A program made the position numbers and the translations under genes. The notes beneath the pieces are model-generated. The model ran no database searches, was not told the origin of the DNA, and saw nothing but the letters and a program-made list of their open reading frames with translations. DNA of 64,000 nucleotides from contig CAZOXU010000001.1 in the NCBI GenBank assembly GCA_964583975.1, positions 291,552-355,551 on the forward strand. The letters run 5' to 3'. Positions 2,723 through 52,295 of the stretch are shown here, piece after piece (position 1 is the stretch's first letter; each line of letters opens with the position of its first letter). The stretch is from an uncultured Planctomycetales bacterium (GTDB taxonomy: Bacteria; Omnitrophota; Gorgyraeia; Zapsychrales; Fredricksoniimonadaceae).

Positions 2723-4312
2723 TTAAAATAGTTTTAATTGTTGCTTTTCTGCTTCCTTACTCTTGGATAGTTTGCGGCGTAATTTGGAATTTTCGTAAGC
2801 TTTTAAATCTTCTTCGATATCAGCCAAGAATAACGATGGCGGATTAAAATAAGTTTGTCCGAAAATTTGCCGGCGGCCAGCACGTGTGAGAAATAAATGC
2901 TCCTTGGCTCTTGTCATTCCAACATAGAAAAGCCGACGTTCTTCCTGAGCGTCTCCTTTAAGTTCATGGATATCTAACGGCAGCAGTCTAGCTTCACATC
3001 CGATCATAAAAACAACCGGAAATTCCAAACCCTTAGCCGCATGTAAGGTTAAAAGAGAGACTCGCTCGACCTTGTAATCCAAAGTTTCTTCAAAACAATC
3101 TAATATTTGTTCATCGATTTGTTCCTGCGGTAGGGGCAGGGTTTCCCTGCCCTTATTAGGGTCGGGCGACCCGACCCCTACAGTACGTTTAGCTGAAACC
3201 GAATAAGGAATTCCTAAATGATCAAGCGCTTCGATAATCACATTTTTCTGGGCATTGAGGCGATAGAGAATGGCGATATCGCCAAAACTTCTCTGAGCTC
3301 CCCGATAAGATTCAACCCGATGTGAATCTTGTGAAAACATGCTTACCCCACCGATTAACTGTTCGATCTGGTGCGCCACATACTCTGCCTCGGCGCGGTC
3401 AGTGGCTGCTTCATGGATCACCAATCTACCTTCATCATAAATCTTAGCTACTGCCTCTGGGACCTTTTGTGTGTTTTCCTTAGCAATCACCTGCGAGCTT
3501 GCGGTTAACAAATTAACGGTCGAACGATAATTCTCTGTCAGATAAAGCTTAGCTGCACCAGCAAAATCTTCTTCAAATCGATTAAAGAATCTCACCTGAC
3601 TACCGCGGAATGAATAGATACTTTGATTAGGATCACCAATTACGGTTAATATCGCCCCCTGCTGGATCAAAACCTTCAACAAGGCCACTTGGATCAAATT
3701 GATATCCTGGTATTCATCGACAAAAATATAGCGATAGCGCTGCTGGACTTGCGCGAGCACCTCTTCATTTTCCAATAACATCAAGGCCTCACGTAGGATA
3801 TCATCAAAATCAATTAGGCCCTTGGCTCGTAACAAACGGTGATATTTCTGAAAATCTGCGCTGGCATCAATGACCAATTGGGTCGATTTCGCCCAAGATA
3901 TTTCATCGAGCGCCTTTTTACGTTCAAGGGGATTTTTATCAGGAAACATCTCAGACAAGAAACCTTGGATATCTTGAGGCAACGCGATCTGGAAGTCTTG
4001 AGGCAACGGCGTATGCTGGCTAAACTCACGCAGTAAGCTTAAAGCAAATCGATGAAATGTCCCCACTGTGATGTGCCGAAAAAAACGAGCATCCTTAGCC
4101 TCTAAACGAGTGCGCATTTCATGAGCGGCTTTATTAGTAAATGTAATGGCCAGAATCTTTTCGTCTGGTTTTAAATTGTTGAGGGTGCGAAGGATTCGGT
4201 AGGTGATCGTATGAGTTTTGCCAGTTCCTGGACCAGCTACAATCAGAAGATGTGAACCCTCATGAGCAACAGCCTGCCATTGTGCATCATTAAGATCTTC
4301 GGGTCTATTCAT
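2723..4312 (-). CDS. UvrD/PcrA-family superfamily-1 DNA helicase (short, 529 aa)
   Basis: Motifs: I GPGTGKT, Ia TFTNKAAHEM, II VDEYQD, III GDPNQSIYSFRG, IV LTENYRS, V LHAAKGLEFPVV, VI YVGMTRAKE. Carries an in-frame palindromic-element insertion at 3130-3181. Confidence 0.85.
   Translation of the reverse strand: MNRPEDLNDAQWQAVAHEGSHLLIVAGPGTGKTHTITYRILRTLNNLKPDEKILAITFTNKAAHEMRTRLEAKDARFFRHITVGTFHRFALSLLREFSQHTPLPQDFQIALPQDIQGFLSEMFPDKNPLERKKALDEISWAKSTQLVIDASADFQKYHRLLRAKGLIDFDDILREALMLLENEEVLAQVQQRYRYIFVDEYQDINLIQVALLKVLIQQGAILTVIGDPNQSIYSFRGSQVRFFNRFEEDFAGAAKLYLTENYRSTVNLLTASSQVIAKENTQKVPEAVAKIYDEGRLVIHEAATDRAEAEYVAHQIEQLIGGVSMFSQDSHRVESYRGAQRSFGDIAILYRLNAQKNVIIEALDHLGIPYSVSAKRTVGVGSPDPNKGRETLPLPQEQIDEQILDCFEETLDYKVERVSLLTLHAAKGLEFPVVFMIGCEARLLPLDIHELKGDAQEERRLFYVGMTRAKEHLFLTRAGRRQIFGQTYFNPPSLFLADIEEDLKAYENSKLRRKLSKSKEAEKQQLKLF
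3130..3181. repeat. Family II nested-palindrome element, divergent copy (52 bp), inserted in-frame in the helicase gene
   Basis: GTAGGGG-CAGGGtttCCCTGCC-cttatta-GGGTCGGgcgaCCGACCC-CTAC. Outer IR GTAGGGG/CCCCTAC plus two internal hairpins. Encodes VGVGSPDPNKGRETLPL. Confidence 0.8.
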
Positions 4313-4315
4313 AAC

Positions 4316-5620
4316 TTAAAATAACGCTAATTGTTTTTCGATTTGGTCACGCTCACCATCTTTGAAAATCTCAACCGTGCCAAACTCTCCGTCATATCCT
4401 GCCGCGATTTTAATATCCCCTTTGCGCATTCGGTTGATACCTTCGGCAATCACTTCGCCTGCCAAGCGGCTAATCTGGTCAATCGGAGCATCGATTAAGA
4501 TGTAAAATTCATTTCCTAAGGAGCCTAACATTTTCATATAAGCTTCCTGTACAGCTTTACTGGCAGGCCCGACACCCTTGGCTTTGGCAATGATTTCTGG
4601 CAGAGGAACAATGTTCCAATAGGGACGATGACGTGGGCCTTTTTGTCCCTCGGGTCTATCCGCCAATTCCTCAACGCGGGCCATGACCCCGACAGTCACA
4701 GGTTTACCACAGCCTGAGCAGAGTCCTTTATTCTCAATCGTCTCTTTAGGATGCCAACGCACATGACACAGGCGATGGCCATCGTAATGGTACTTGCCTT
4801 CTTCAGGGAAAAACTCAATAGTACCTACCAATCCTCGATCTTTCTCTTCAGATAAAGCGCGGTAAATGGCCGAATAAGAAAAATCGGTATTAAAAATATT
4901 GGCTTCACGCCCTAACTTGGAAGGTGAATGCGCATCAGAGTTTGAGACTAAGATAAAAGGATCAAGTTGCTTTAAACGCCAATTCATAAGAGGATCGGAA
5001 GACAATCCTGTTTCAACCGCAAAGACATGCCGGGTTAAATCAGCAAAGCAATCTTCCATGCGATCAAATCCGCCCATTGAACCCAAAGCTGAAAACCATG
5101 GCGTCCAAATATGTGCCGGCACAAAAATATTCCTAGGGTCTGCTTCGAGGGTGATTTCCAAAAGATCACGGGAATCAAGCCCAAGAATTGGTCGGCCATC
5201 AGACTTTATATTACCAATGCTTCCAAGTTTTGCCTGGATCTTCTTAGCTGACTCGATCGATGGAACCCAGATCAAATTATGGACCTTACGCACACGATCC
5301 AAGCGTTTATAGATGTTAGAAATTTCAACGGTGAGCATGAAACGCACCGGCATACGACAAGCCGCAGGAAGCATCTTATCCATCTCTTTTGCATACTGAT
5401 CTTTAAGCTTATAAAAGCCTTCCTCAGCAGGCTCGAGTTTGTCTTCAATCTCTTTAAGCCATGCTGGGTGAACGAAATCCCCTGTACCAACTAAGTGAAT
5501 CCCCTTATATTGGGCCCAAAGGTAGAGATTTTCTAGATCAAGATTCTTGGCGGTGGCTCGAGAGTATTTGGAATGAATGTGCAGATCTGCGTAAAACTTC
5601 ATGCGGTCAGTATATCCCAA
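4316..5620 (-). CDS. PHP-domain nuclease with C-terminal Cys4 zinc ribbon, endonuclease Q (EndoQ)-like
   Basis: N-terminal DLHIHSKYSRA PHP metal-binding motif, HxxWxPW-like core, and CHVRWHP...CSGCGKP zinc ribbon; ~430 aa as for EndoQ-family proteins. Only 3 bp upstream of the helicase gene. Confidence 0.6.
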   Translation of the reverse strand: MGYTDRMKFYADLHIHSKYSRATAKNLDLENLYLWAQYKGIHLVGTGDFVHPAWLKEIEDKLEPAEEGFYKLKDQYAKEMDKMLPAACRMPVRFMLTVEISNIYKRLDRVRKVHNLIWVPSIESAKKIQAKLGSIGNIKSDGRPILGLDSRDLLEITLEADPRNIFVPAHIWTPWFSALGSMGGFDRMEDCFADLTRHVFAVETGLSSDPLMNWRLKQLDPFILVSNSDAHSPSKLGREANIFNTDFSYSAIYRALSEEKDRGLVGTIEFFPEEGKYHYDGHRLCHVRWHPKETIENKGLCSGCGKPVTVGVMARVEELADRPEGQKGPRHRPYWNIVPLPEIIAKAKGVGPASKAVQEAYMKMLGSLGNEFYILIDAPIDQISRLAGEVIAEGINRMRKGDIKIAAGYDGEFGTVEIFKDGERDQIEKQLALF

Positions 5621-5700
5621 GGGTTATAACGCGTCAACTGTCCGGAATTACCGGATAGTTGGATTATGCAAAGAATGCATATTGCTTTTCTGTACGGGGA

Positions 5701-8196
5701 TTAAATGACAATACTAACAAGCTTCTTGGGGACGACAATAATTTTCTTGATAGTAGCCCCTTCGAGATAGCGGGCCACATTGGCATCTGCCAGGCAGAGT
5801 TTTTTCAGATCTTCATCAGAGGTGCAAACCGATGTCGTAAACTGACCACGAACCTTACCATTGATTTGAACGGCATAGGTGACTTCATCTTGCACCAGGG
5901 CTCGCTCATCAAAGGCGGGCCAGGCGACCTTACTGACGGTCTGATCTTTTTTGCCCATCATCTGCCAAAGCTCTTCGCACAAATGCGGCGTAAATGGGGT
6001 TAACAATAAGACGAGGGTTTCAATGGCTTGATTCAACGTAACCGTTGATTCTTGCTTATACTTATCAACGGCATTTGCCAAGATCATAGCCTGACTAATG
6101 GCTGTATTAAATTTATAACCTTCTTCAAAAGCTTGGGTAATCTGTCGGATAGCTAGATGACGGGCACGCTCTAAGGTTTGATCTGCTCCCTGCTCGGTGG
6201 TTTCTTTCGCATAACGTTTCTCAACCATCAAGTAAACACGGTTTAAAAATCGCCAGGCCCCCTCTAAACCATCACTATTCCATTCGAGCTGATCTTCTGG
6301 CGGAGCAGCAAAAAGAATAAATAAACGTAAAGTATCTGCACCATATCTATTTAAAACTTCATCCGGATCAACTGTGTTGCCCCGAGATTTAGACATCACT
6401 TCTCCATCTTTAAGCACCATCCCCTGGGTTAAAAGACGGACAAACGGTTCATTTAAATCAGTTAGTCCTAAATCTTTGAAGAATTTAGTAAAAAAACGAG
6501 AGTACAACAAATGTAATATAGCATGCTCGATACCACCGATGTATTGATCGACCGCCATCCAATATTTGGCTTCATCCTTATTAAAGACTTCTTGGTTGTT
6601 ATCTGCAGAACAAAACCGTAAGAAATACCAGGAAGAATCAAAGAAGGTGGCCATGGTATCGGTTTCACGGCGGGCTGCTTTAGAACATTTAGGGCACTTC
6701 ACATTAACGAAATCTTCTACACGATTTAAAGGAGAGCCTCCCTGCCCCGTGATTTCCACATTCTTAGGTAATGCTACAGGCAATTGCGCATAAGGAACAG
6801 GAACCACACCGCAAGCCTCGCAATAAATCATGGGAATCGGCGTTCCCCAGTAACGCTGGCGGGAAATCAGCCAATCACGCAAGCGCCAATGAATGGTTGT
6901 TTTACCCATGCGTTCTTGAGCCATCCATTCAGCAATTTTCTTCTTAGCTTCTTCATTATTAAGACCATCAAATTGCTTCGAATTAACCAAAACACCCGCA
7001 TCTTCATAAGCCTTGGTCATATCTTTTAATTCAAAAACCTCTTTAGGGTTTTGAATAACAATTTTCATGGCAAGCTTATGGTTGGTAGCGAATTCAAAAT
7101 CGCGCTGGTCATGGGTGGGTACCGCCATAATGGCGCCAGTCCCATACTCCATCAATACATAGTCCCCAATATAAACCGGAATAGAATCACCATTAACAGG
7201 ATTGATGGCATAACGGCCTGTAAACACGCCTTCCTTACGCTGATCGCCTGACATACGAAGGCTTTTACTTTTATTGGCTGTCTTCTCAATAAAGGTCCCA
7301 ATTTCTTTTTCTTGAGGAGTGCCAGCGACAAGTTTTTTAACCAAAGGATGTTCTGGAGCCAGGACCACATAGGTAGCCCCAAAAATGGTGTCGGGACGGG
7401 TAGTGAAAACCGGAATAATTTCGTCCGTAGGGGCAGGCCCCTGTGCCTGCCCTTCTTGAGGGCGACCACGGGGGGTCGCCCCTACAATTTTAAAATAAAT
7501 CTCTACCCCAAAACTCTTACCAATCCAATTCTCCTGCATAGCTCGCACACGTGAAGGCCAATGCTCGAGCTGCTTTAAGTCTTCCAGTAAGGTTTCAGCG
7601 TAATGAGTAATCTTTAGATACCACTGATCTAAGTCTTTTTGTTCGACATTGTTTTTGCAGCGCCAGCAAGCGCCATCGATAACTTCTTCGTTGGCTAAGG
7701 TTGTCTGACAGCTAGGACACCAATTGACGGAAGAAGCTTTCTTATAGGCAAGCCCACGTTCATACATCTTTAAAAAGATCCACTGATTCCATCGGTAGTA
7801 GTCACTGTCGCAAGTGGCAATTTCACGGTCCCAGTCATAGGCAAAGCCCATTTTCTTGAGTTCTTCTCTCATCTGGTCGATACATTGGTAGGTCCACTGA
7901 CCTGGGTCGGTCTTATGTTTGATAGCCGCATTCTCAGCAGGCTGACCAAAGGCATCGTAGCCCATGGGGTGAAGCACATTAAACCCTTGCATCATTTTGT
8001 AACGGGCCATCACATCGCCGATGGTATAGTTACGCACATGGCCCATATGAATCTTGCCCGAAGGATAGGGAAACATTTCTAAGACATAATACTTCTTCTT
8101 AGAAGCATCCGCTTCGACTTTAAAAGTCTTGCGCTGTTCCCAGAAACGTTGCCATTTTGATTCAATGGATTTGATGTCGTTGGTGGTATAAGGCAT
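5701..8196 (-). CDS. leuS: Leucyl-tRNA synthetase
   Basis: HMGH (PSGKIHMGHVRNY) and KMSKS (VMSKSRGN) class-I motifs; TTRPDT editing-domain motif; bacterial LeuS length. Contains a 59-bp element insertion. Confidence 0.95.
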   Translation of the reverse strand: MPYTTNDIKSIESKWQRFWEQRKTFKVEADASKKKYYVLEMFPYPSGKIHMGHVRNYTIGDVMARYKMMQGFNVLHPMGYDAFGQPAENAAIKHKTDPGQWTYQCIDQMREELKKMGFAYDWDREIATCDSDYYRWNQWIFLKMYERGLAYKKASSVNWCPSCQTTLANEEVIDGACWRCKNNVEQKDLDQWYLKITHYAETLLEDLKQLEHWPSRVRAMQENWIGKSFGVEIYFKIVGATPRGRPQEGQAQGPAPTDEIIPVFTTRPDTIFGATYVVLAPEHPLVKKLVAGTPQEKEIGTFIEKTANKSKSLRMSGDQRKEGVFTGRYAINPVNGDSIPVYIGDYVLMEYGTGAIMAVPTHDQRDFEFATNHKLAMKIVIQNPKEVFELKDMTKAYEDAGVLVNSKQFDGLNNEEAKKKIAEWMAQERMGKTTIHWRLRDWLISRQRYWGTPIPMIYCEACGVVPVPYAQLPVALPKNVEITGQGGSPLNRVEDFVNVKCPKCSKAARRETDTMATFFDSSWYFLRFCSADNNQEVFNKDEAKYWMAVDQYIGGIEHAILHLLYSRFFTKFFKDLGLTDLNEPFVRLLTQGMVLKDGEVMSKSRGNTVDPDEVLNRYGADTLRLFILFAAPPEDQLEWNSDGLEGAWRFLNRVYLMVEKRYAKETTEQGADQTLERARHLAIRQITQAFEEGYKFNTAISQAMILANAVDKYKQESTVTLNQAIETLVLLLTPFTPHLCEELWQMMGKKDQTVSKVAWPAFDERALVQDEVTYAVQINGKVRGQFTTSVCTSDEDLKKLCLADANVARYLEGATIKKIIVVPKKLVSIVI
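7427..7485. repeat. Family II nested-palindrome element, copy A (59 bp), in-frame inside leuS
   Basis: GTAGGGG-CAGGcccctgtgCCTGCC-cttcttga-GGGCGACCacgggGGGTCGCCC-CTAC. Translated as RGRPQEGQAQGPAP immediately before the TTRPDT motif. Confidence 0.9.
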
Positions 8197-8212
8197 ATGG
8201 TGATAAACAATA

Positions 8213-8239
8213 AAGGGGATCGTTTAAAACAATCCCCTT
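8213..8239 (-). terminator. Hairpin AAGGGGAT-n11-ATCCCCTT between speH stop and leuS start; possible intrinsic terminator or attenuator
   Basis: 8-bp perfect stem, 11-nt loop. On the transcribed (minus) strand it is followed by UAUUGUUUAU. Confidence 0.3.
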
Positions 8240-8265
8240 ATATTTTCTTACAATTCAAACAACTG

Positions 8266-8796
8266 TTATTTGTGTGCTAATTCTTTTTCTTTATGAGCTG
8301 AACCACAACCGCAGGCTTCACTGTAATAGCTTAAACCTCTTTCAACAAATTGTGCCTCAACTTTTTTAGGCCCAAAAAACTTACGACAAAACTCTTCTGC
8401 CTTTTTCTTATCAAAAGATCGGCAGCAATAGATGTCGACGGTAATAAAATCTTTAGGGGTCAATGTGTGAATAACAATCGAACTTTCGATGAGGGGAACC
8501 CAACCAGAAAGTCCTGCCTTATCGGGAAAACGTGTGGCATCAGAGCGAAATATCGATGGTGGCGCTTGCTTTTCCATCCCCAAGAAACCGACGATTTCAT
8601 CGAGAAAGTTGTAACAAAGCGTTAGATCATCGCAAACACCTTTCTTGCAATCGTAAAGATCCAACAACAACTCGTAGCCGAATACTCCTGGCTTGCCCAT
8701 TTTCTGCTCCTTGATGCCAGCCTCACTCTGGCGAACAGGCCTTGATGACCCGTTGGGACTGTTAATAAATGTTTCACGAAGAAACGTATTATACAA
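8266..8796 (-). CDS. speH: Pyruvoyl-dependent S-adenosylmethionine decarboxylase proenzyme (SpeH, class 1A)-like; probable true start at 8700
   Basis: LYDC and PLIESSIVIHTLTP (self-cleavage ES site, with ...VDIYCC) motifs typical of SpeH. The internal Met at 8698-8700 is preceded by AGGAG. Unusual Cys-rich C-terminal tail. Confidence 0.6.
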   Translation of the reverse strand: MYNTFLRETFINSPNGSSRPVRQSEAGIKEQKMGKPGVFGYELLLDLYDCKKGVCDDLTLCYNFLDEIVGFLGMEKQAPPSIFRSDATRFPDKAGLSGWVPLIESSIVIHTLTPKDFITVDIYCCRSFDKKKAEEFCRKFFGPKKVEAQFVERGLSYYSEACGCGSAHKEKELAHK

Positions 8797-9944: not shown

Positions 9945-10938
9945 AGACTTACTTGAGGACCAACGCCCGCAAGCCCTAGAAGAAATTGCCCAGGAAGCTG
10001 CTCGGGTGACTCGACAATATTTTGGCCGTACTATTGGATTGTATGCCCCGCTTTATTTATCGAATTACTGCTCCAGTCATTGCACCTACTGCGGCTTTCA
10101 TAGTAATAACAAAATTACTCGCATAAAGCTTACTCCTGATCAATATCGCCAAGAAATGCAGGTCATTCACTCTCAAGGCATCCGTAATATTCTCATGCTT
10201 ACAGGCGAATCATATAAACACACGCCGGTTGAATATTTAAAAGAAGCAGCCCAGGCTGCCTCGGAGTATTTTCAAGGCATTGCACTTGAAGTCCATCCTA
10301 TGAAAACCAATGAATATCAAGAACTCTTTACTGCAGGGGTCGATGGCATTACGGTTTATCAGGAAACCTATGACCGCAGCCGCTATGCGCAGGTGCATCT
10401 TTCTGGCTACAAAAAAGATTATGATTTTAGACGAGCCACTCCCCAGCGAGCTGCTGAAGGTGGCATGCGCCAGATTGCCATGGGCGTTCTTTTAGGATTG
10501 AGTGATGCTGCTAGCGATCTTCTAGAACTTTATAACCACTTACGCGAGATGGAACAATCTTTTCCTGGCGTTGAGTACAGCGTTTCCTTTCCCAGGCTTC
10601 GCACTATTAAAGACAAAGAATTTGCCCACTGTGATGTCGATGATATCCAATTAACCAAGATTGTTGCCTTAACACGCATCCTTTTTCCTCGGGTAGGAAT
10701 CAATCTTTCCACCCGTGAAGATGCGCGCTTACGTGATCATTTGCTTGAAATCGGAATTACCCGTATGTCCGCAGGTTCAAATACATCGGTGGGTGGATAC
10801 TCTCTGCTGAACGAAGAAGAACAAGACCCTCAATTTGATATTAAAGATGAACGCTCGGTGGCTGATATTATTGCCCTACTTAAACGTAAGAATTTTGATC
10901 CTGTCTTTACGGACTGGCGACGAATTGAAAATAGGTAA
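9922..10938 (+). CDS. thiH: Radical-SAM 2-iminoacetate synthase ThiH (tyrosine lyase)
   Basis: [10 protein letters not shown] radical-SAM cluster motif; located in the thiS-thiG-thiH cluster. Confidence 0.8.
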
Positions 10939-10943
10939 AAAAT

Positions 10944-11048
10944 GTCATCCCCGAATGCTTTTATCGGGGATCCAGGCACAAGTGCCAGCCAGAGGCTGGT
11001 CAGCCCTGGACTGAAACTAGGTTCCCGATTAAAACGTTCGGGGATGAC
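10944..11048. repeat. Family I palindromic element, copy 2 (105 bp, extra GC-rich hairpin inserted in its centre)
   Basis: GTCATCCCCGAATGCTTTTATCGGGGAT...GTTCCCGATTAAAACGTTCGGGGATGAC, with the internal palindrome CCAGCCAGAGGCTGG. Intergenic between thiH and thiF. Confidence 0.85.
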
Positions 11049-11060
11049 ATAAGGTTATCC

Positions 11061-14476: not shown

Positions 14477-14489
14477 AAATTAATCTCAT

Positions 14490-14557
14490 GTCATCCCCGA
14501 ATGTATTTATCGGGGATCTAGTACACTAGGTTCCCGATTAAAGCATTCGGAAACGAC
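14490..14557. repeat. Family I palindromic element, copy 3 (68 bp, right terminus degenerate)
   Basis: GTCATCCCCGAATGTATTTATCGGGGATCTAGTACACTAGGTTCCCGATTAAAGCATTCGGAAACGAC. Intergenic between the aldolase/SDR gene and cysK. Confidence 0.85.
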
Positions 14558-14568
14558 AGAAAGTTTTC

Positions 14569-36089: not shown

Positions 36090-39000
36090 CTACCCTTTGG
36101 CTAGCTGGGTGTTCTTTTGAAGCTGCGAGAACATGGGCAAAGTGATGGCTGGCCTGATTTCCATGATAACCGGCACCAGACCATCAATATGAATATTTTC
36201 CAAATTCTGCTGACTAATTGGCAGCGGCACACCTGCTCCATCACGCTTGATCTGCAAATTCAAATTTGCTGCGTTAAAGTCGATACCACCCTTTGTCGCC
36301 ATTGCAGAGTCAGAGATTTTATCCGTCACGTATTGCACGATATCGCCAACCGTTCGAAGTGATGCCGTTTTGTCGTTAGGAATTCGAATATTAAAACTAT
36401 CCTCAAGCTCTATCATTAGCACAATGACGTCTTGAGAATCTACACTGAAATCCTTTTGGAGATCATCGGTATCTTTAAATTCAATGTGATCAAGACTTGG
36501 AACTACTTTCTTGATTGCTTCATGTACTTTCTGTCTTACCCCTTCAGATTTGGTTGTCATGGCAGAATCATATAAAGCGTTTATTTGATCTTTAATCGCT
36601 TTAATTTCTTGGTCCAATTTTTGCAATTGATTCCCCAAAACTGTTGGGCTATATGCTCCCCCTTGTTGAGCCCCATATCCCCTTCCCAAAGCCGACACAT
36701 AATCGACGTTAACCTTAACTCTTTGAGCACTCAATTCGCTTTCTTTATTTTGCAATTTCCTTCTATAATCAGTTTTTGAAATTACTTCTATATTCAGCTT
36801 CTCTGCTACGATTGACAATGCCCCTTCTTGAGTAAGAAGCTCTGCTGCGGTAATTCTTTGAAATGCATCATCTGACAAAACAATTGTCGTATTCTCAACG
36901 CCTTCACTTAAATATCTCTCAAATGCAACCATAGGGTCATTGTTCTGGGAAATCTCAAGATCTGCTTTTCCATCTCTAGAAATTTTTAATTTCCCTGAAG
37001 ACCATGAAACACTCGTATGTATTTTATTAAAACCTATCATCCAATAATTAGCATTTTGATAATTATAAAACACATCGACCTCGCCACTTGTTGCTTGTAA
37101 AACGCCTGTCTTCTTACCTGTAAACGCCATTTTTTGCTCTTGTAAACCATTGAAGTCCGGTGCGTTAACTAATTGGTCAAAGGCTTCACGCCATAAAGGA
37201 ATTTTAATCTTTGTAATCGCAATCATCGCTTCATCAACAAACCTAGCCTGGTGATCGTCTTGATCTGGACGACCTATTTCTGCCTGAGCCTGATGAATAG
37301 CAGTATCGAGGCTATCTAATTCTCGCTGCAGGGTCTCAATTTCCATTGCGTGCTGTAATCTGTCAGATTCATTATTCTGAACAGCAGCGGCATTCATTAA
37401 TTTGCGCTCTTGGGCTATTCGATCATTAATCTTACCTTGTTGCTTTAGAAGATTATCTAAACTTGTTTGAGGCAATTCGCCACGCATCGCGGCATCGCCG
37501 CTTCCAGTAGCGTTACTAATCTCTGCCCATGCTGTATTAATTTCTGCTTTTACATTCTCAAGTTCGCGCTTCAATACATCAATTTGTACTCTTAAACGGC
37601 TTATTATTGAAGGATTTGCAACAACATTTACACCCGCTGCTGCTGTATTTTTGGCGTACTCTGCATCTAATTCTCGTTGAAATGAATCAATTTGAGCTTG
37701 AATCGATCTTTGACGCTGTTCTAATTCGCCTTTTTGTTTGGAAGCTGTCAAAAGTTTAGCAGCACCAAGATTGGATTGATTGATACCTGCTTCTAATCGC
37801 GCTTGGGGTGGCAATTCGCCACTCATCGCGGCGTCAGAATCATCACGGCCGTTATCAATTTCTGGCAGTAACGCAAGAATATTGACCTTTATTCTTTCAA
37901 GCTGAATCTGTAATGCAGCAATTTGTGGTCTTAACGAATCGGCTTTAGTACGATCTAACTCTAATTCTTTTTGCAGACTATCGATTTGTGCTTGAAGCTC
38001 GCGTTGTTGCGCTTCTAACTGTCCTTTTCTAACTGAAGGACTGATCTGTAGATCACTTCTATTCGCCATTGCCGCGTCAGCCTTCGCTGTTGTCACTACT
38101 CCTTGACCCTCTTTAATAGGAGAAACTAATTTTGTATCAATGCCCTTGGCCTCAATGGCAGATAAAACAATATTTCTAATGTCAGGATCTATGCTACTAT
38201 CGGTATTGATTAATCCTGCTTTTTGTAGTGTAGCCTTTGGCCCATCATAAATCTTAAAATCTGGACTTCTTGCTAAATCTTCCAAATCAGCTAATGTCAA
38301 TGCGCCTAGAGTTTGATTCAACACTCCTCTTAACTTCTCCATCGTGCTATCCACCACTTCCTTACTTGCTTGCGATCCATTTCTTAAAGTGACTACATCC
38401 ATCGCTGCATCAAAACCTTGTAATAAATTCAATTCCTCTTGCGCCCTTAGCAGGGATTTTTCTGTTTTTCTTAAAGCTGCTTCCAAATCAGTCATTTTTG
38501 CAAACTTATCCTCTGCTCTTGCTATGGCCAACTCACGATTAAGCCCATCAAATTGACCTTCCAACTCTTCAACCTTTTTTTGAGCATCAGCAATAGCTTG
38601 AGAAGATTTTTGAGCCGCCATCGCGGAGTCTCTGCGCAAGATTTCATCCCAAATTCGCTGCATTATTTTCTTATCATTTGTTATTTGCTTGGCAATTCTT
38701 TTTCGTTGACGCGAACTTAAAAGAAAACTATCGACTATTGCGACTCCAATGGCATGATGCGCTGCCCACAAGGAAGATAGATAGATCGTCTGAAGCGCTG
38801 TCTTATAATTCTTACTAACAGCCAAATCAAAAATTTGCAAAGGGCTCATTTTCTTTAAACGGGGCTTAGCCGCCATCGCTGCATCTTTTTTAGTCTTCAT
38901 CGCATCTTTGATAGCACCTAAGGCTTTTACATATTTGAGTTCGGTCAATGTTCTATCAGCAATGCCATCTTCTAAATAGTCTGCTGCTGCTTGAAGTTCA

Positions 39001-40745
39001 TCTGATGTAATTTGATCTGTTGGCTCCTCATTAATAAACTGATCAACAACTACAGATGGGGTGAGCTTTACTACGTCACTTTGTAGCGATTCAACTTTTT
39101 CTTCTAACTTTTTCAGCAATTGATTCAAAACTGCCAATTCTCCAACCAATTTATTGCCTGCGCCTTGAACTCGTCGCAAAGCTCTGACATTTTCTCGATC
39201 CTTCAACATTAATCTTGTTGCACGAATAACTGTCAATATTTGCTGACGCTTTTCAGCATCCCCTATCGCAAGACGCTTCAAATCGATACCACGAAACACA
39301 TTAGAAACCGCAGCAATTCTTGCCAAAATTGATTGAAAAAGGAGAACGTCTTTACCATTTCCGCTGATCGCACCTTCCATACTTGTAATAACACTGTCGA
39401 ATTTTATATTTAACGTTCTGATCAAATCCTCTGAATCTTCTTCAGCCTTTGTCATCGCCGCATCAGCCTCAGACTTCTCTGCTAATACAGCTTCTACAGC
39501 ATCTAACTTTCCCGCCTCGGTAGTCAGGATCGGCGTTGCCATAGCAGAATCGGTTGTTGTGCGCATTACCTTTCCATATTCATTCTTTGTTCCACCTGAA
39601 AAATACTTCCTTGGCACGGGCTGATGGGTGAATCGGTCGGTGTCTTCTTTAATATAGTTAAATACACCCTTCTTATAAGCCTTAATGTATTGCTGATAAA
39701 TGGCTTCATTGTTCTTAGGATCTTGATTAATACCGTTAACCTTGGCTTTGTTAGCATAGATCTTGCTTAATAGAGATTCCTTCAAAGCTCGCTTGTACCA
39801 GGCTGCTAAAATCATGCCGCTATACACCTGACGAAGCATGACAAAGTTCTTGCCTTCATTGACTTCTTTTTCAAGGGCTGGAAGTACTATTTCACGGACG
39901 ATTTGGGAGCCGATTTGATTGGTTTCCGTAGGGGCAGGCCCCTGTGCCTGCCCTTCTTGAGGGCGACCACGGGGGGGCGCCCCTACAGCATTTTTATTCA
40001 TAGCCATGTAATCCTCTTCTAGCATCACCTTCAAATGATTCTTTAACACATACGCTGTATTACCAGATTCATACACCGTGGCATCATCTGGCACAATCCA
40101 TACCTTATTAAAGGTATTAACTGGAATCTCTGTGCTGCCAAATTGCTGCTGAGCTTGGGTATACACCTTATCCCAGAACTTCTTACCTAACTCATCTTCA
40201 GGGTATATTAAAGAAGCAGTGATTTGCTTTAATAGGTAGTCTTGAGCTAATAAATCCCGGCCCATCTCAGTCTTACCAAAGTCTTCTTCTACGATACGGT
40301 TCTTTTCATAGGGTGATAGGTTGACCCATTGATTCTCATCAGGCACGGCTAAAGAAGCCATAAAGTACTTAATTAAATTCTTATAAGCGATTTGTTTATC
40401 TTGATCAGATAGACTTTCATCACCTTTGTAGATGATGAAGTCGAATTTAAGAGGATTTTCAGGATGAATAACTAAACCTTTAAGATGTGCAGGGGTGAAT
40501 TCAGGGCTTAGAGCAACTCTGACTCCTGGACTTGGCATCCATGGCATCGAACCAGCAGCCACTTGAGAATAAGCAGGCCGTTGAATGGAAGTACTAAGAA
40601 AAGTCACTAAAATGGTGATAGAAATAAACTTACGAATGGTCATAAAAACCCTTCTTCCTGAGGTATAAATAGTAAATTTGGGGTCAAAAATTCTACACTT
40701 CTTGAAATATGCGGCAAGTATGCCATGGGAAAAGCGCTTTGTCAA
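36090..40745 (-). CDS. Giant secreted modular protein (probable start 40642, ~1517 aa) with coiled-coil repeats, recurrent D-[SA]-A-M-x motif, and a C-terminal acyl-carrier-protein-like domain
   Basis: Long single ORF. Signal peptide follows the internal Met (MTIRKFISITILVTFLSTSIQRPAYS), which is preceded by AGGAAG. Carries a palindromic-element insertion at 39928-39986. The ACP-like segment is FSVDSQDVIVLMIELEDSFNIRIPNDKTASLRTVGDIVQYV. Confidence 0.7.
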   Translation of the reverse strand: MTKRFSHGILAAYFKKCRIFDPKFTIYTSGRRVFMTIRKFISITILVTFLSTSIQRPAYSQVAAGSMPWMPSPGVRVALSPEFTPAHLKGLVIHPENPLKFDFIIYKGDESLSDQDKQIAYKNLIKYFMASLAVPDENQWVNLSPYEKNRIVEEDFGKTEMGRDLLAQDYLLKQITASLIYPEDELGKKFWDKVYTQAQQQFGSTEIPVNTFNKVWIVPDDATVYESGNTAYVLKNHLKVMLEEDYMAMNKNAVGAPPRGRPQEGQAQGPAPTETNQIGSQIVREIVLPALEKEVNEGKNFVMLRQVYSGMILAAWYKRALKESLLSKIYANKAKVNGINQDPKNNEAIYQQYIKAYKKGVFNYIKEDTDRFTHQPVPRKYFSGGTKNEYGKVMRTTTDSAMATPILTTEAGKLDAVEAVLAEKSEADAAMTKAEEDSEDLIRTLNIKFDSVITSMEGAISGNGKDVLLFQSILARIAAVSNVFRGIDLKRLAIGDAEKRQQILTVIRATRLMLKDRENVRALRRVQGAGNKLVGELAVLNQLLKKLEEKVESLQSDVVKLTPSVVVDQFINEEPTDQITSDELQAAADYLEDGIADRTLTELKYVKALGAIKDAMKTKKDAAMAAKPRLKKMSPLQIFDLAVSKNYKTALQTIYLSSLWAAHHAIGVAIVDSFLLSSRQRKRIAKQITNDKKIMQRIWDEILRRDSAMAAQKSSQAIADAQKKVEELEGQFDGLNRELAIARAEDKFAKMTDLEAALRKTEKSLLRAQEELNLLQGFDAAMDVVTLRNGSQASKEVVDSTMEKLRGVLNQTLGALTLADLEDLARSPDFKIYDGPKATLQKAGLINTDSSIDPDIRNIVLSAIEAKGIDTKLVSPIKEGQGVVTTAKADAAMANRSDLQISPSVRKGQLEAQQRELQAQIDSLQKELELDRTKADSLRPQIAALQIQLERIKVNILALLPEIDNGRDDSDAAMSGELPPQARLEAGINQSNLGAAKLLTASKQKGELEQRQRSIQAQIDSFQRELDAEYAKNTAAAGVNVVANPSIISRLRVQIDVLKRELENVKAEINTAWAEISNATGSGDAAMRGELPQTSLDNLLKQQGKINDRIAQERKLMNAAAVQNNESDRLQHAMEIETLQRELDSLDTAIHQAQAEIGRPDQDDHQARFVDEAMIAITKIKIPLWREAFDQLVNAPDFNGLQEQKMAFTGKKTGVLQATSGEVDVFYNYQNANYWMIGFNKIHTSVSWSSGKLKISRDGKADLEISQNNDPMVAFERYLSEGVENTTIVLSDDAFQRITAAELLTQEGALSIVAEKLNIEVISKTDYRRKLQNKESELSAQRVKVNVDYVSALGRGYGAQQGGAYSPTVLGNQLQKLDQEIKAIKDQINALYDSAMTTKSEGVRQKVHEAIKKVVPSLDHIEFKDTDDLQKDFSVDSQDVIVLMIELEDSFNIRIPNDKTASLRTVGDIVQYVTDKISDSAMATKGGIDFNAANLNLQIKRDGAGVPLPISQQNLENIHIDGLVPVIMEIRPAITLPMFSQLQKNTQLAKG
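39928..39986. repeat. Family II nested-palindrome element, copy B (59 bp), in-frame inside the giant ORF
   Basis: Nearly identical to copy A (differs by about 2 nt, in the second hairpin). Encodes PPRGRPQEGQAQGPAPT. Confidence 0.9.
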
Positions 40746-41998: not shown

Positions 41999-42063
41999 AA
42001 AATTAGGGACAACCCCCTATTTTATCCTTTCACTTAAGAAAATAGGGAGTTGTCCCTAATTTT
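41999..42063. repeat. Family III palindromic element, copy 1 (65 bp): AAATTAGGGACAACCCCCTATTTT ... AAAATAGGGAGTTGTCCCTAATTT
   Basis: Hairpin with an ~20-bp stem; stem differs from copies 2/3 by paired changes (ACCC/GAGT vs GCGC). Encodes the last 8 codons plus stop of miaA. Lies 2 nt upstream of the hflX start. Confidence 0.85.
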
Positions 42064-45616: not shown

Positions 45617-45618
45617 AT

Positions 45619-45687
45619 AAATTAGGGACAGCGCCCTATTTCACCCTATTTTTTCTTGCTTGCTAAATAGGGCGCTGTCCCTAATTT
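45619..45687. repeat. Family III palindromic element, copy 2 (69 bp): AAATTAGGGACAGCGCCCTATTT caccctattttttcttgcttgct AAATAGGGCGCTGTCCCTAATTT
   Basis: Perfect 23-bp inverted arms. Provides the cca C-terminus KLGTAPYLASKKK plus stop. Abuts the start of the downstream gene. Confidence 0.9.
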
Positions 45688-47052
45688 AGCTGCCAACACC
45701 AACGCTTCTTGTTTCGTAGCTATCTTCCCCAATGCTTGAGCCTCTTGAACTTCAGATAGAATCTTCGTAAATAGCGGCGATGGTTTTAATTTAAGCTTTT
45801 TGATTAAATCATGCCCCGTCAACAAACGTACCAGAGGTTTCTGATTTTGACTGTCGATAAAACGCTCGATCACCTGCCAGCAGGTTTTACGATGATGCTC
45901 ACTCTTGGCCTTCTTGGTCAAAGGCCCACGTGTGGCTCGCTGATCAGCGAGCGCTAAAAGTAAAACACTTAAAGCTTCCTGCTTTGTATCACGCAAAAAA
46001 CGAAAAACCATTCGCTCGGAAGGTTGTTTAAAATTTGACATATATCCTGGGCGCAAATGCCAGGCCACCATATCTTCTAAGAAATATCGCTCCTTGACCG
46101 CCAACTTTAAATGTTTAGCCACAATGCGGGTGATATCAGCCCCCACCTTTTCATGACCATGAAAGGTCATGCGGTCTTTTTCTTTTTTCTTGGTGTCAGG
46201 TTTACCGATATCATGCAACAGACAAGCAAACTTCAACAACGCATATCGCTTGTGATTGGCTGCAATTTCTTCTTGGAGATAATTTTGAATAAATGGATCT
46301 TCGATTTCGAGAGCTAACAGTTCAAACTGACGTACCACCTCGAGCGAATGCTTCCAAACATCCAGATGATGATATCCGCCTTGATGAACGCCTTCCATCA
46401 CACCGAGTTGGGGCATGATCTTTTGCAGTAATCCTGCTTTGTGCATCAAAACAATGGTCTCAACCGTTCTGCTAGAAGCTAAAACCTTAAACCATTCTTC
46501 TCGAACCCGCTCGACCGAAACCTTACTTATGCGACTAATATCTTTTTGAATCTGCTTAAAAGTCTTAGCTTCGATCTTAAATCCCAACTGAGCCGATAAA
46601 CTAAAGGCTCGCATTAGTCTCAGCGGATCATCAGCAAAAGCCCGGGACGCGACCATCCTGATAGTCTTTGATTTCAGATCTTTAGTGGCCCCACGATAAT
46701 CCAATATCTTCGTATCATTAATACTCTGGCATAAGGTATTGATCGTAAAATCACGTAGGGCTACATCCTTCTGCAGTGATTCAGCACGAAAATCAGAAAA
46801 ATCATAGGTCCACAGTTGCCCTTCTTCTTTTTTGACAACCCGTCCGCACGGATGTTCTTCATCTAAAAGAACAAAAGCCCCTTTGATCTTTTTAGCAAAG
46901 GCCCGAGCCAGTTCGATTGCATTCTTCGAGACCGTAAAATCAAAATCAAAACCTTCGCGGTTTAAATATTGGTCGCGTAAACGGCCGCCAACCAAATAAA
47001 CCGAAACTCGGCCTCGAGCTGCTAATGTTTGGATAGTAGATAAATACTTCAT
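45646..47052 (-). CDS. cca: CCA-adding tRNA nucleotidyltransferase / poly(A) polymerase family with HD domain
   Basis: Pol-beta nucleotidyltransferase N-terminus YLVGGRLRDQYL..DFDF and HD motif LLHDIGKP. Confidence 0.75.
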   Translation of the reverse strand: MKYLSTIQTLAARGRVSVYLVGGRLRDQYLNREGFDFDFTVSKNAIELARAFAKKIKGAFVLLDEEHPCGRVVKKEEGQLWTYDFSDFRAESLQKDVALRDFTINTLCQSINDTKILDYRGATKDLKSKTIRMVASRAFADDPLRLMRAFSLSAQLGFKIEAKTFKQIQKDISRISKVSVERVREEWFKVLASSRTVETIVLMHKAGLLQKIMPQLGVMEGVHQGGYHHLDVWKHSLEVVRQFELLALEIEDPFIQNYLQEEIAANHKRYALLKFACLLHDIGKPDTKKKEKDRMTFHGHEKVGADITRIVAKHLKLAVKERYFLEDMVAWHLRPGYMSNFKQPSERMVFRFLRDTKQEALSVLLLALADQRATRGPLTKKAKSEHHRKTCWQVIERFIDSQNQKPLVRLLTGHDLIKKLKLKPSPLFTKILSEVQEAQALGKIATKQEALVLAAKLGTAPYLASKKK

Positions 47053-49312: not shown

Positions 49313-49329
49313 AATCTCCTCTTAAGATT

Positions 49330-49397
49330 GTCATCCCCGAATGCTTTTATCGGGGATCTAGTGCACTAGTTGCCCGACTAAAACATTCGGGCATGAC
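49330..49397. repeat. Family I palindromic element, copy 5 (68 bp)
   Basis: GTCATCCCCGAATGCTTTTATCGGGGATCTAGTGCACTAGTTGCCCGACTAAAACATTCGGGCATGAC. Intergenic between glyA and rpiB. Confidence 0.85.
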
Positions 49398-49402
49398 AGG
49401 TG

Positions 49403-49855
49403 TTATTTCATAAACTTCTTCTCAATCGCTTGAATCTGTTCAAATCGTCTCTGGTGACGACCACCTTCAAATGGGGTAGTTAACCAAGTCTCAACTATAG
49501 GAATGATATTGGCAGCTTCAATAAAAAGTGAGCCTAAAACTAAAATATTGGAATTGTTATGTTCACGCGATAACTTAGCAGCTTCCTTGGTATAACACAA
49601 AGCCGCATAGGCGCCTGGAACTTTATTGGCAGCAATTGAATGTCCTATTCCTGTCATACACACTAGAATTCCACGAGCATCGGCATTGCCAGCAACCTTG
49701 CTTGCCACCTCTAAAGAAAATTGCGGGTAATCACAACCCATTTCTTCTTGAAAGGTGCCTACATCAACTACTTCATGCCCCTTTTTGCTTAAGGATTCCA
49801 CAATGCTCTTTTTTAATTCGAATCCTCGATGATCTGCGCCAATATAAATTTTCAT
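49403..49855 (-). CDS. rpiB: Ribose-5-phosphate isomerase B
   Basis: RpiB/LacAB fold; ~150 aa with the active-site region GIGHSIAANK. Confidence 0.85.
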   Translation of the reverse strand: MKIYIGADHRGFELKKSIVESLSKKGHEVVDVGTFQEEMGCDYPQFSLEVASKVAGNADARGILVCMTGIGHSIAANKVPGAYAALCYTKEAAKLSREHNNSNILVLGSLFIEAANIIPIVETWLTTPFEGGRHQRRFEQIQAIEKKFMK

Positions 49856-50919: not shown

Positions 50920-50923
50920 AATT

Positions 50924-50996
50924 AAATTAGGGACAGCGCCCTATTTCACCTTATTTTTTCTTTCTTACTTGCTAAATAGGGCGCTGTCCCTAATTT
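50924..50996. repeat. Family III palindromic element, copy 3 (73 bp)
   Basis: Arms identical to copy 2. Provides the purD C-terminus KLGTAPYLASKKEKIR plus stop. Abuts the tsaC start. Confidence 0.9.
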
Positions 50997-52259
50997 AGCA
51001 AGGGCTTTTTGTCCAATATCACGTCTAAAGAAGATATGATCAAATTGGATCTTATCGACAGATTCATAGGCCTTGGCAATGGCTTTTTCAAGTGAAGCAC
51101 CTAAACTAGCAACACCTAAAACTCTTCCCCCCGCTGTGACTAGAGAACCGCCATCATTTTTTGTTCCTGCGTGAAAAACAATAGTGTCTGGATCATTAAT
51201 ATCTTCTAGGCCCTTGATCTCATAACCATTTTGATATTTGCCAGGATATCCGCCGGAAGTCAAGACCACACAGACACATGATCGCTGGTCCCATTGTACC
51301 TTTAATTCATTGAGTCTGCCGTCACACGAAGCCAACATGATTTCAACAAGATCGCTTTTCAATTTAGGTACAATACTCTGCGTTTCTGGGTCACCAAAAC
51401 GCGTGTTAAATTCTAACACAAATGGCCCGCTATTGGTTAACATTAAGCCTGCGTACAATACTCCCTTAAATGGTACACCCTGGGCATACATTCCCCGCAA
51501 AGTAGGTTCAATAATTTTCTTAATAATGATATCTAAAATCTCTGCAGTCACAATTGGGGCAGGACAATAAGAACCCATACCACCGGTATTCGGCCCTAAA
51601 TCTTCATCAAAAATCCGTTTATGATCTTGAGCGCTAGGCAAAACCAAAAAATGTTTGCCATCACAAATCGCCAACACCGAGGCTTCCTGACCTTGCAGGC
51701 AATCCTCAACGACGATTCTTTCTCCAGCCGTTCCATAAAGCTTCTGAACCATGATTTCATCAACAGCTATCTGGGCTTCTTTTAAATTGGCGCACACATA
51801 CACACCTTTACCTGCTGCAATCCCGTCAGCTTTAACTACCAAAGGAAATCTCGCTGAGTTCAAGAAATCTAAGGCATCGATAAATCTTTCAAAAACTTTA
51901 TAGCTGGCGGTTGGGATATCATGACTCGATAAGAATTGTTTCGTATAAATCTTGCTGCCTTCTAATTGTGCAGCTTCCTTACTTGGACCAAAGATCTTCA
52001 GTCCTTTTTGAGAAAAGACATCAACAATACCAACAACCAAGGCTGCCTCGGGGCCTACCACGGTCAGGTCAATTTTCTTAGATAGAGCAAATTTCAACAA
52101 GCCTTCGATATCATCAACAGCAATATTGACGCACTCGGCAATCTGAGCGATACCACCATTGCCTGGGGCGCAATAAAGCTTCTTAACCTTAGGACTCTGT
52201 TTGATCTTCCAGCACAGCGCATGCTCTCTGCCGCCAGAACCAATGACTAGAATGTTCAT
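50946..52259 (-). CDS. purD: Phosphoribosylamine-glycine ligase
   Basis: ATP-grasp PurD; MNILVIGSGGREHAL N-terminus. Confidence 0.9.
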   Translation of the reverse strand: MNILVIGSGGREHALCWKIKQSPKVKKLYCAPGNGGIAQIAECVNIAVDDIEGLLKFALSKKIDLTVVGPEAALVVGIVDVFSQKGLKIFGPSKEAAQLEGSKIYTKQFLSSHDIPTASYKVFERFIDALDFLNSARFPLVVKADGIAAGKGVYVCANLKEAQIAVDEIMVQKLYGTAGERIVVEDCLQGQEASVLAICDGKHFLVLPSAQDHKRIFDEDLGPNTGGMGSYCPAPIVTAEILDIIIKKIIEPTLRGMYAQGVPFKGVLYAGLMLTNSGPFVLEFNTRFGDPETQSIVPKLKSDLVEIMLASCDGRLNELKVQWDQRSCVCVVLTSGGYPGKYQNGYEIKGLEDINDPDTIVFHAGTKNDGGSLVTAGGRVLGVASLGASLEKAIAKAYESVDKIQFDHIFFRRDIGQKALAKLGTAPYLASKKEKIR

Positions 52260-52268
52260 TTTTTCCCT

Positions 52269-52295
52269 GTACGGGCTGGGTAACCCAGCCCCTAC
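52269..52295. repeat. Mini single-hairpin relative of Family II: GTACGGG-CTGGGtaaCCCAG-CCCCTAC
   Basis: Shares the CCCCTAC terminus; the other terminus is one mismatch from GTAGGGG. Fills the purM-purD intercistronic gap and overlaps the purM stop. Confidence 0.6.

Follow-up and report, generated by a model that had tools for sequence, protein, structure and literature searches.

How does a palindrome that lies in frame inside a protein-coding gene come to keep its stems paired while their sequence changes, and to what kind of element does it belong? We examined this for a 52-nt repeat, copy C, in a helicase gene of an uncultured member of the phylum Omnitrophota, the names of homologues placing the organism in Candidatus Omnitrophota. 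It occupies positions 3130-3181 of a 64-kb stretch of contig CAZOXU010000001.1 (hereafter the window), which carries two further repeats of the same general plan, copies A and B. We consider it very probable that copy C is a doublet of GTAG-tagged repetitive extragenic palindromic (REP) units, an inverted heterodimer similar to a REPIN, and that it belongs to a superfamily spread and renewed by a HUH/Y1 transposase of the RAYT type (REP-associated tyrosine transposase). This class, GTAG-tagged REP dimers tied to RAYT transposases, was not recognised in a preliminary description of the same DNA.

Anatomy and class of copy C

2723-4312, minus strand: UvrD/PcrA-like superfamily 1 helicase of 529 residues without a 2B domain, host of copy C (Pfam PF00580 and PF13361; alignment to PcrA and UvrD)
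3130-3181, minus strand: copy C, 52 nt, read as an inverted doublet of two GTAG-tagged REP units; its minus-strand translation, VGVGSPDPNKGRETLPL, is in frame
3130-3152, plus strand: 'constant' REP unit, GTAG-GGGCAGGG-ttt-CCCTGCCC, of the GGCAGG/CCTGCC type; the 3' half on the coding strand, encoding ...GRETLPL
3153-3158, no strand: TTATTA spacer separating the two units, read from the sequence
3159-3181, minus strand: 'variable' REP unit, GTAG-GGGTCGGG-tcg-CCCGACCC in minus-strand spelling, from sequence reading and comparison of units

Copy C reads GTAG-GGGCAGGG-ttt-CCCTGCCC-ttatta-GGGTCGGG-cga-CCCGACCC-CTAC, exactly as the preliminary description had quoted it, and shares with copies A and B the outer GTAG...CTAC repeat and the two-hairpin plan reported there. 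Its first half comprises GTAG (3130-3133), GGGCAGGG (3134-3141), a TTT loop, CCCTGCCC (3145-3152) and TTATTA (3153-3158), and its second half GGGTCGGG (3159-3166), a CGA loop, CCCGACCC (3170-3177) and CTAC (3178-3181). The GTAG tags accordingly occupy plus-strand positions 3130-3133 and minus-strand positions 3181-3178, and both units have a perfect 8-bp stem and a 3-nt loop. The region folds far better than its shuffled versions on both strands (z = -4.5 and -4.7, with 0 of 200 shuffles as good). As single-strand RNA, it folds at minimum energy into a single long and imperfect hairpin (-36.7 kcal/mol, versus -32.2 for two separate hairpins); with DNA parameters, the minimum is the two-hairpin form (-19.2). 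Since the pairing between the two arms in the long hairpin is interrupted by internal loops wherever the arms differ, whereas each unit's own stem is perfect, the conserved structure is the individual unit.

On the coding strand, GTA-GGG is the sole open frame of copy C, the others being stopped by the TAG within GTAG and by the TAA in the spacer, and copies A, B and C all lie in frame in minus-strand genes and are read as GTA-GGG (Val-Gly). The length of 52 nt is not a multiple of three, so that the inserted unit must span two more flanking bases, or the flanks must have been adjusted. A search of the whole window against Rfam matched no family.

This anatomy is in line with that of GTAG REPs. 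An unpaired GTAG stands at one end in copy C, as it does in all units listed, and in 81-88% of 131 doublets the tag is preceded by T or C. Next to the tag, both units of copy C carry a GC-rich stem with a loop, within the 5-13 bp and 2-20 nt, respectively, that are typical of the class, and stem changes between subfamilies are complementary, as is the case for REP subfamilies. Copy C also has the structure of a REPIN, with two inverted REPs able to form one hairpin; the extragenic location of REPINs is shared by none of the window doublets. Integron attC sites, CRISPR repeats and the ends of IS200/IS605 elements were ruled out from anatomy alone.

The other units of the window are as follows.

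5701-8196, minus strand: leucyl-tRNA synthetase (LeuRS) gene, an open reading frame (ORF), host of copy A
7427-7485, minus strand: copy A, 59-nt doublet in frame in LeuRS, peptide VGATPRGRPQEGQAQGPAPT
36090-40745, minus strand: ORF of 1551 residues, host of copy B
39928-39986, minus strand: copy B, 59-nt doublet in frame in the 1551-residue ORF, peptide VGAPPRGRPQEGQAQGPAPT
52273-52295, minus strand: single extragenic REP unit, GTAG-GGGCTGGG-tta-CCCAGCCC, directly upstream of the ATG that opens MNILVIGSGGREH

The pattern GTAGGGG-N25-50-CCCCTAC is matched three times in the window, against 0.00 matches expected from 100 shuffles. Counted as GTAG units, the window holds three doublets and one singlet against 0 expected, and a related Omnitrophota genome, L001 (GCA_044225175.1, with a helicase 79-80% identical to that of the window), holds five doublets in 21.6 kb. 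Copies A and B, which read GTAG-GGGCAGGC-ccctgt-GCCTGCCC-ttcttga-GGGCGACC-acgggg-GGTCGCCC-CTAC, are identical at 58 of 59 positions (98.3%) across the whole doublet, spacer included, in unrelated host genes, which we count as recent activity or conversion in this genome; their lone difference, in copy B, disrupts one stem pair. Relative to A and B, one stem pair of hairpin 1 is changed in copy C, from C-G to G-C with the partner arm matched, and five positions are changed in hairpin 2 (GGGCGACC to GGGTCGGG), every one of them matched in the partner arm. All six positions are thus compensated, in agreement with the preliminary description. Its view of copy C as a divergent member of the A/B family applies to the common architecture, but copy C is not merely a decayed A/B copy and has a 23-nt unit subtype of its own. 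The geometry GTAG-GGGNNGGG-TNN-CCCNNCCC is common to both arms of copy C and to the singlet, which is the sole extragenic GTAG unit in the window, and the NN positions of these 23-nt units (TC/GA, CT/AG and CA/TG) are all compensated.

The RAYT link

In L001, a 183-residue Y1 transposase is encoded at 8108-8659, between LeuRS and the helicase operon. This RAYT-like gene has both the HUH (MPNHIHG) and the Y (WQRNYYE) motifs, matches Pfam PF01797 (Y1_Tnp; E=2e-7, 31.6 bits, cut-off 23) and scores 67-69 bits with NCBIfam NF047646 (REP-associated tyrosine transposase), versus 20-28 bits for IS200. It has more than 7000 homologues, many of which are labelled 'REP element-mobilizing transposase RayT' by JGI. 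One doublet lies in frame inside the gene (8354-8415) and another at its 3' end (8610-8672). In a second related Omnitrophota genome, L204 (GCA_015233165.1), a RAYT occupies the same syntenic position (3679-4167), with a GGGCAGGTT REP 50 nt upstream and another unit inside (3935-3959). In both relatives, therefore, a RAYT stands beside its cognate REPs. A metagenome search with the helicase, which returned only two close relatives and serves as a negative control for patchy distribution, covered about 1 Mb around the helicase genes of other lineages and found no RAYT there; the 280 kb of Omnitrophota-like loci that form part of this DNA contained no GTAG REP unit. The presence of RAYT together with REPs in L001 and L204, and of neither in those 280 kb, amounts to patchy co-occurrence, as expected for such a system.

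The doublets of these genomes favour coding DNA. In the Omnitrophota-like low-GC loci (the window, L001, L003, L078 and L018), 10 of 10 lie inside long ORFs in the GTA-GGG frame; in low-GC loci of other phyla, doublets are mostly extragenic. A fixed orientation, with the variable arm first relative to the gene, was also considered; it holds in 10 cases and is broken by the inverted helicase insert of L204, and was therefore rejected as an absolute rule.

Several observations weigh against assigning copy C to a RAYT-driven REP superfamily. The 64-kb window itself encodes no RAYT (tblastn with the L001 protein returned only noise, with E of at least 3), and its syntenic slot between LeuRS and the next gene (5620-5701) measures only about 80 nt. 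The RAYT relatives fall under the NF047646 equivalog cut-off (67-69 against 80 bits), and REPs are classically extragenic, whereas all three window doublets are intragenic. No insert is present in P0002, the closest helicase (87% identical); directly downstream of the site, however, the window protein is nearer to P0003 and P0004, the helicases of L001 and L003 (84%), than to P0002 (73%), a contrast that points to a local recombination or loss event in the history of the gene. The sites compared as DNA are all occupied. Finally, that a RAYT would mobilise the doublets of this genome is inferred by homology.

The junction between LeuRS and the helicase operon is itself a variable hot spot, holding a RAYT in L001 and L204, the gap of about 80 nt in the window and a RhuM-like gene in the contig of P0002.

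The REP palindrome is also found within the RAYT gene itself. In this RAYT clade, the segment directly after the HUH motif reads VGAGS...(R)AGLEPAPT in 101-106 of the 114 top homologues, giving the layout MPNHIHGII-[VGAGS...AGLEPAPT]-LxEIVRQFK, and is encoded by the palindrome. The segment is 12-121 residues long, with tandem arm duplications such as EPARTEPARTEPART and VGAGSVGAGSVGAGS, and the palindrome is conserved across at least five phyla, its stems being taxon-specific and compensated (Omnitrophota, Planctomycetota, Zixibacteria, Chloroflexia and Longimicrobiaceae). Five loci that contain a RAYT (L052, L123, L028, L082 and L022) are among the 120 matches listed from the genome scan described below, and in all five the doublet lies inside the RAYT ORF at the post-HUH position. 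A limited literature search found no description of RAYT-internal REPs, the published analyses that it did find treating only RAYT-flanking REPs, and the in-frame occurrence of a REP inside RAYT across phyla may thus be a new observation. It is possible, if somewhat doubtful, that the internal REP is no insertion hot spot but a self-embedded recognition site with a function, for instance that of a master copy, of a hairpin regulating in cis or of a switch for excision. If so, this would be an undescribed feature of REP/RAYT systems, and it would explain the near-constant GGCAGG/CCTGCC arm in every window doublet.

Pairing across the family and at the host sites

We then scanned genomes with one arm fixed (GGCAGG...CCTGCC) and the other free, and recovered at least 120 loci, including Chloroflexota, Acidobacteriota, Planctomycetota, Deltaproteobacteria, Clostridia, Omnitrophota and others. 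Among the matches listed, the free arm has many stem types, including GGGCGACC, GGGCAACC, GGGCGGCC, GGGCACCC, GGGTAACC and GGGCGGGTT, is nearly always self-complementary and shows a few recurring loop types. Covariation was measured on 62 unique units from many phyla, selected on GTAGGGG...CCC only and with the pattern-forced arm excluded. In this set, 89.7% of cells are paired, against 75.0±1.1% in shuffles, double-sided changes number 86 against 31, and the covariation score is 0.429 against 0.159±0.015, a value that 0 of 500 shuffles reach and to which slid registers come no closer than 0.175. With a separate script, the inner five pairs were found to be Watson-Crick in 78% of cells, the shuffles giving 46±2.7% and never more than 54%, and the slid registers 25-45%. 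The preliminary description took the matched stem changes to mean that the hairpins are being maintained, and at the level of the family this is borne out: pairing lies well beyond the controls, and uncompensated stem changes do not occur at the rate of the loops. It does not follow, however, that copy C itself is under selection, because transposase filtering, gene conversion or template switching could give the same pattern.

The orthologous host genes show how such units fare at a single site. Copy C is the positional orthologue of different variants in two related genomes, since the helicases P0003 (L001) and P0004 (L003) carry the inserts VGAALADALLGQGQALPL and VGVPLAGTLSGQGQALPL at the same site and codon. 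The constant-arm stem GGGCAGGG is common to all three. In the variable arm, the window has GGGTCGGG/CCCGACCC, L003 has GGGTGCCC/GGGTACCC, which includes one G·T pair, and L001 has GGGCGGCT/AGACGCCC, which includes one G·A mismatch. Of the 48 stem cells in the three orthologues, 47 are paired when read directly, and the variable arm differs at 4-5 of its 8 positions. Because the insert, at 73-82% identity, has diverged about as much as the 150-nt flanks, at 66-78%, copy C looks like an old, vertically inherited insert that has diverged in place with its pairing kept. Most close helicase orthologues are without an insert.

The LeuRS site has a different history. The doublets of the window (7427-7485) and of L001 (6224-6279) lie at exactly the same codon (FKI|VG...PAPT|D) and are only 61.7% identical, versus 72-85% for their flanks, while copy A matches copy B, in another gene, with 98.3% identity and a doublet at a third place in L001 with 86.9%. 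As the insert is less conserved than its flanks and each version resembles copies of its own genome, the sequences suggest in-place replacement or gene conversion, with concerted evolution within each genome, and the current REP type of each genome seems to supplant the host-gene doublets where they stand, without a change of codon. The L001 LeuRS also has, near residue 748, an extra 10-residue Gly-rich insert, SARGGSAFGG, which is absent in the window and may be another small repeat-derived insertion.

Taken together, it seems reasonable to propose the following course of events. A RAYT would recognise a short GC-rich hairpin with a 5' GTAG tag, by analogy with E. coli TnpA-REP, and a doublet would have entered the helicase gene in an ancestor common to at least two related Omnitrophota lineages. 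The landing site would have been a short unstructured linker in place of domain 2B, where the doublet could survive because it has one open frame (GTA GGG ...) and adds merely a Gly/Pro-rich loop. Later, it would have diverged about as fast as the surrounding DNA, with the stem of each unit kept paired. At the level of the family, pairing would persist because only hairpin-forming units are recognised and copied. For the cause of pair maintenance at copy C itself we can only infer an answer, probably conversion or replacement from other genomic copies together with quasi-palindrome correction.

An alternative, compatible with REP identity, is that pairing is kept by mutational mechanics (template switching, inversion of the hairpin top, gene conversion or replacement) and not by selection on the hairpins. 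We hold this to be a tentative but real possibility, as each of these mechanisms yields 'compensated' changes in a single event. In line with it, the LeuRS doublet was turned over without a change of site, as the identities given above attest, flips account for many of the covarying pairs (at pair 11/19, 23 units have CG and 22 have GC), three neighbouring pairs of the variable arm stand flipped in L003 relative to the window, and the tandem arm duplications within RAYT genes show that the palindromes are mechanically unstable. Against this, covariation from GC to AU, which needs two substitutions, is common too (GC:37 with AU:9, and GC:33 with AU:11), G·T intermediates are enriched (8 of 16 single non-Watson-Crick pairs), as stepwise compensation predicts, and stem identity and the GTAG tag are conserved across phyla, which favours filtering by recognition.

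A role in RNA is a good deal less probable. Here the hairpins would act in the helicase mRNA, through stability, RNase processing or translational pausing, and copy C would be an exapted RNA element. The fold of the sense-strand RNA is indeed very stable (z = -4.7, at -35.9 to -36.9 kcal/mol), pairs compatible with G·U are tolerated and RNA functions of REPs have been proposed in the literature (PMC3733652). Such a role is difficult to reconcile with the lack of an Rfam match, with the occurrence of the same units, in either orientation, in genes unrelated to one another (the insert of the L204 helicase is inverted), with the absence of the insert from P0002, the closest relative, and most others, and with the lack of strand asymmetry among the G·T pairs (GT 4, TG 4).

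A further alternative is that the insert is kept for its peptide. The copy C peptide VGVGSPDPNKGRETLPL forms helicase residues 378-394. Residues 7-372 align to PcrA 12-380 and residues 415-504 to PcrA 556-646, the UvrD alignment agreeing, and residues 373-414 take the place of PcrA 381-555, the 2B domain. The preliminary description placed the insert between motifs IV and V and expected it to map to a surface loop of 2B. It does lie between motif IV (ILYRLNAQ) and motif V (LTLHAAKGLEF), at the 2B position of PcrA and UvrD, but this helicase has no 2B domain, and the insert sits in the linker of about 25 residues that replaces it; the helicase family as a whole has a typical length of 483 residues and no 2B domain. 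A first AlphaFold model from 21 sequences, in which the predicted local distance difference test (pLDDT) of the C-terminal half was <50, was discarded in favour of a repeat with 119 sequences (mean pLDDT 82.6). In the latter, residues 367-395 are modelled as coil, which fits an exposed loop, although pLDDT is <50 at 375-390 and a stretch of such low confidence cannot prove exposure.

The position exactly at 2B, the 54-residue helical insert that some homologues have at the same place and the filling of the site in three lineages would all suit an insert retained as a functional linker or a 2B surrogate. We nevertheless find this very improbable. The three orthologous insert peptides share only VG...LPL, residues dictated by the GTAG/CTAC tags, which argues against selection on the peptide, and among these orthologues it is the DNA pairing that is conserved and not the peptide. 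In addition, the model shows this segment as coil at low confidence, the majority of orthologues, the closest among them, do without it, and the same type of sequence occurs in LeuRS, in the 1551-residue ORF and in the RAYT gene.

Least probable of all is that copy C is a MITE (a transposable element of the miniature inverted-repeat kind), or an element resembling the Rickettsia palindromic elements (RPEs), of another transposase unrelated to RAYT, or a chance palindrome: the window is indeed without a RAYT, and in-frame palindromes are best known from Rickettsia RPEs (PMC3733652), but three matches against 0.00 expected exclude chance, the tags are GTAG and not CGTC, the units measure 23-26 nt versus about 100-150 nt, the flanks show neither long terminal inverted repeats nor target duplications, and RAYT and REPs, both adjacent and internal, lie at a syntenic locus in two relatives.

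Other inserts and repeats were seen alongside these. At query residue ~388, the homologues P0027, P0039, P0050, P0068 and others share a conserved and apparently helical insert of 52-57 residues, which may be a vestigial or alternative 2B-like module at the motif IV/V site. In P0013, P0023, P0120, P0052, P0085, P0071 and P0119, in-frame inserts resemble translated palindromes of other families (for example GHVPN..FGTCP, and CHSRESGNP / PDTHSCS), which indicates that several repeat families invade coding regions in these bacteria. Within the window, 'Family I' inverted doublets (TGTCAT-CCCCGA...TCGGGG-ATCTAG / CTAG...ATGACA) lie at 1725-1808, 10938-11059, 14484-14568 and 49324-49408; they are similar to the TGTC/CGTC-tagged REP superfamily and lie for the most part between genes, and in the copy at 10938-11059 additional DNA separates the arms. 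The inverted pairs of a third, AT-rich family (AAATTAGGGACAGCGCCCTATTT...AAATAGGGCGCTGTCCCTAATTT), at 42000-42062, 45618-45690 and 50923-50999, are all in stop-rich intergenic DNA. In the 1551-residue host ORF of copy B, short D(A/S)AM motifs recur many times alongside coiled-coil-like repeats, and no family was assigned to this ORF.

Relation to known systems and significance

Elements of the same kind as copy C, intragenic copies included, have already been described (Di Nocera, De Gregorio & Rocco 2013, PMC3733652). GTAG REPs consist there of a 5' GTAG followed by a GC-rich stem-loop of 6-9 bp, are associated with RAYTs and form inverted dimers, often heterodimers, with subfamilies that have 'alternative complementary stem residues'; intragenic copies, which are most numerous in Opitutus terrae, encode 20-30 residues in hosts that include UvrD/REP helicases and tRNA synthetases, and the O. 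terrae REP peptides begin with VG too (VGPALAAG...). Copy C shares the tag, the stem-loop, the inverted heterodimer, the compensated subfamilies and the intragenic location of this superfamily. What is new is the phylum, as Omnitrophota were not surveyed in that study (PMC3733652), and a literature search for palindromes of Omnitrophota found nothing specific. The present system also differs in that the Omnitrophota-like doublets are all intragenic and in one frame (3 of 3 in the window, 10 of 10 across loci), and in that the near-constant GGCAGG...CCTGCC arm matches sequence within the cognate RAYT gene.

Further comparisons place the doublets among other palindromic repeats. Like REPINs (Bertels & Rainey 2011, PMC3116915; Bertels et al. 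2017, 10.1101/119735), they consist of inverted REPs able to form one long hairpin; in L001 and L204 they come with a RAYT at a fixed syntenic position, apparently vertically inherited, and in the window with near-identical copies within a genome (A and B). Unlike REPINs, copy C has dissimilar arms, so that its long hairpin is imperfect while the unit stems are perfect, and it is intragenic; REPINs, moreover, were defined in the Proteobacterial Group 2/3 of RAYTs, a clade other than the one found here. With the Rickettsia RPEs, as treated in PMC3733652, the doublets have in common that palindromic selfish repeats lie in frame in essential genes and add surface-loop peptides with function kept. 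According to the same paper, however, RPE-4 and RPE-6 are tagged with CGTC, RPE-1 is much longer (about 100-150 bp) than the GTAG-tagged doublets of 52-59 nt seen here, and no dedicated transposase is known for RPEs. Finally, the REPs and bacterial interspersed mosaic elements of E. coli, with TnpA-REP (4ER8), likewise combine a GTAG guide tetranucleotide 5' of a hairpin with a HUH/Y1 enzyme, as set out in PMC6006769; the units described here are shorter and have perfect stems, the RAYT ORF contains a REP, and the mechanism would apply to Omnitrophota by analogy.

These results extend palindromic repeats of the REP/RAYT type to an uncultured phylum, the Omnitrophota, where the doublets are found almost only inside essential genes, including those for the helicase, LeuRS and the transposase itself. 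They provide a second natural system, beside the Rickettsia RPEs and the Opitutus REPs, in which to study the addition of loops to proteins by selfish palindromes. Annotators should regard segments of the form VG...P(L/T) as repeat-derived and not as lineage-specific protein motifs. The orthologous series of helicase and LeuRS inserts, in turn, is a case in which compensatory evolution can tractably be told apart from replacement in place.

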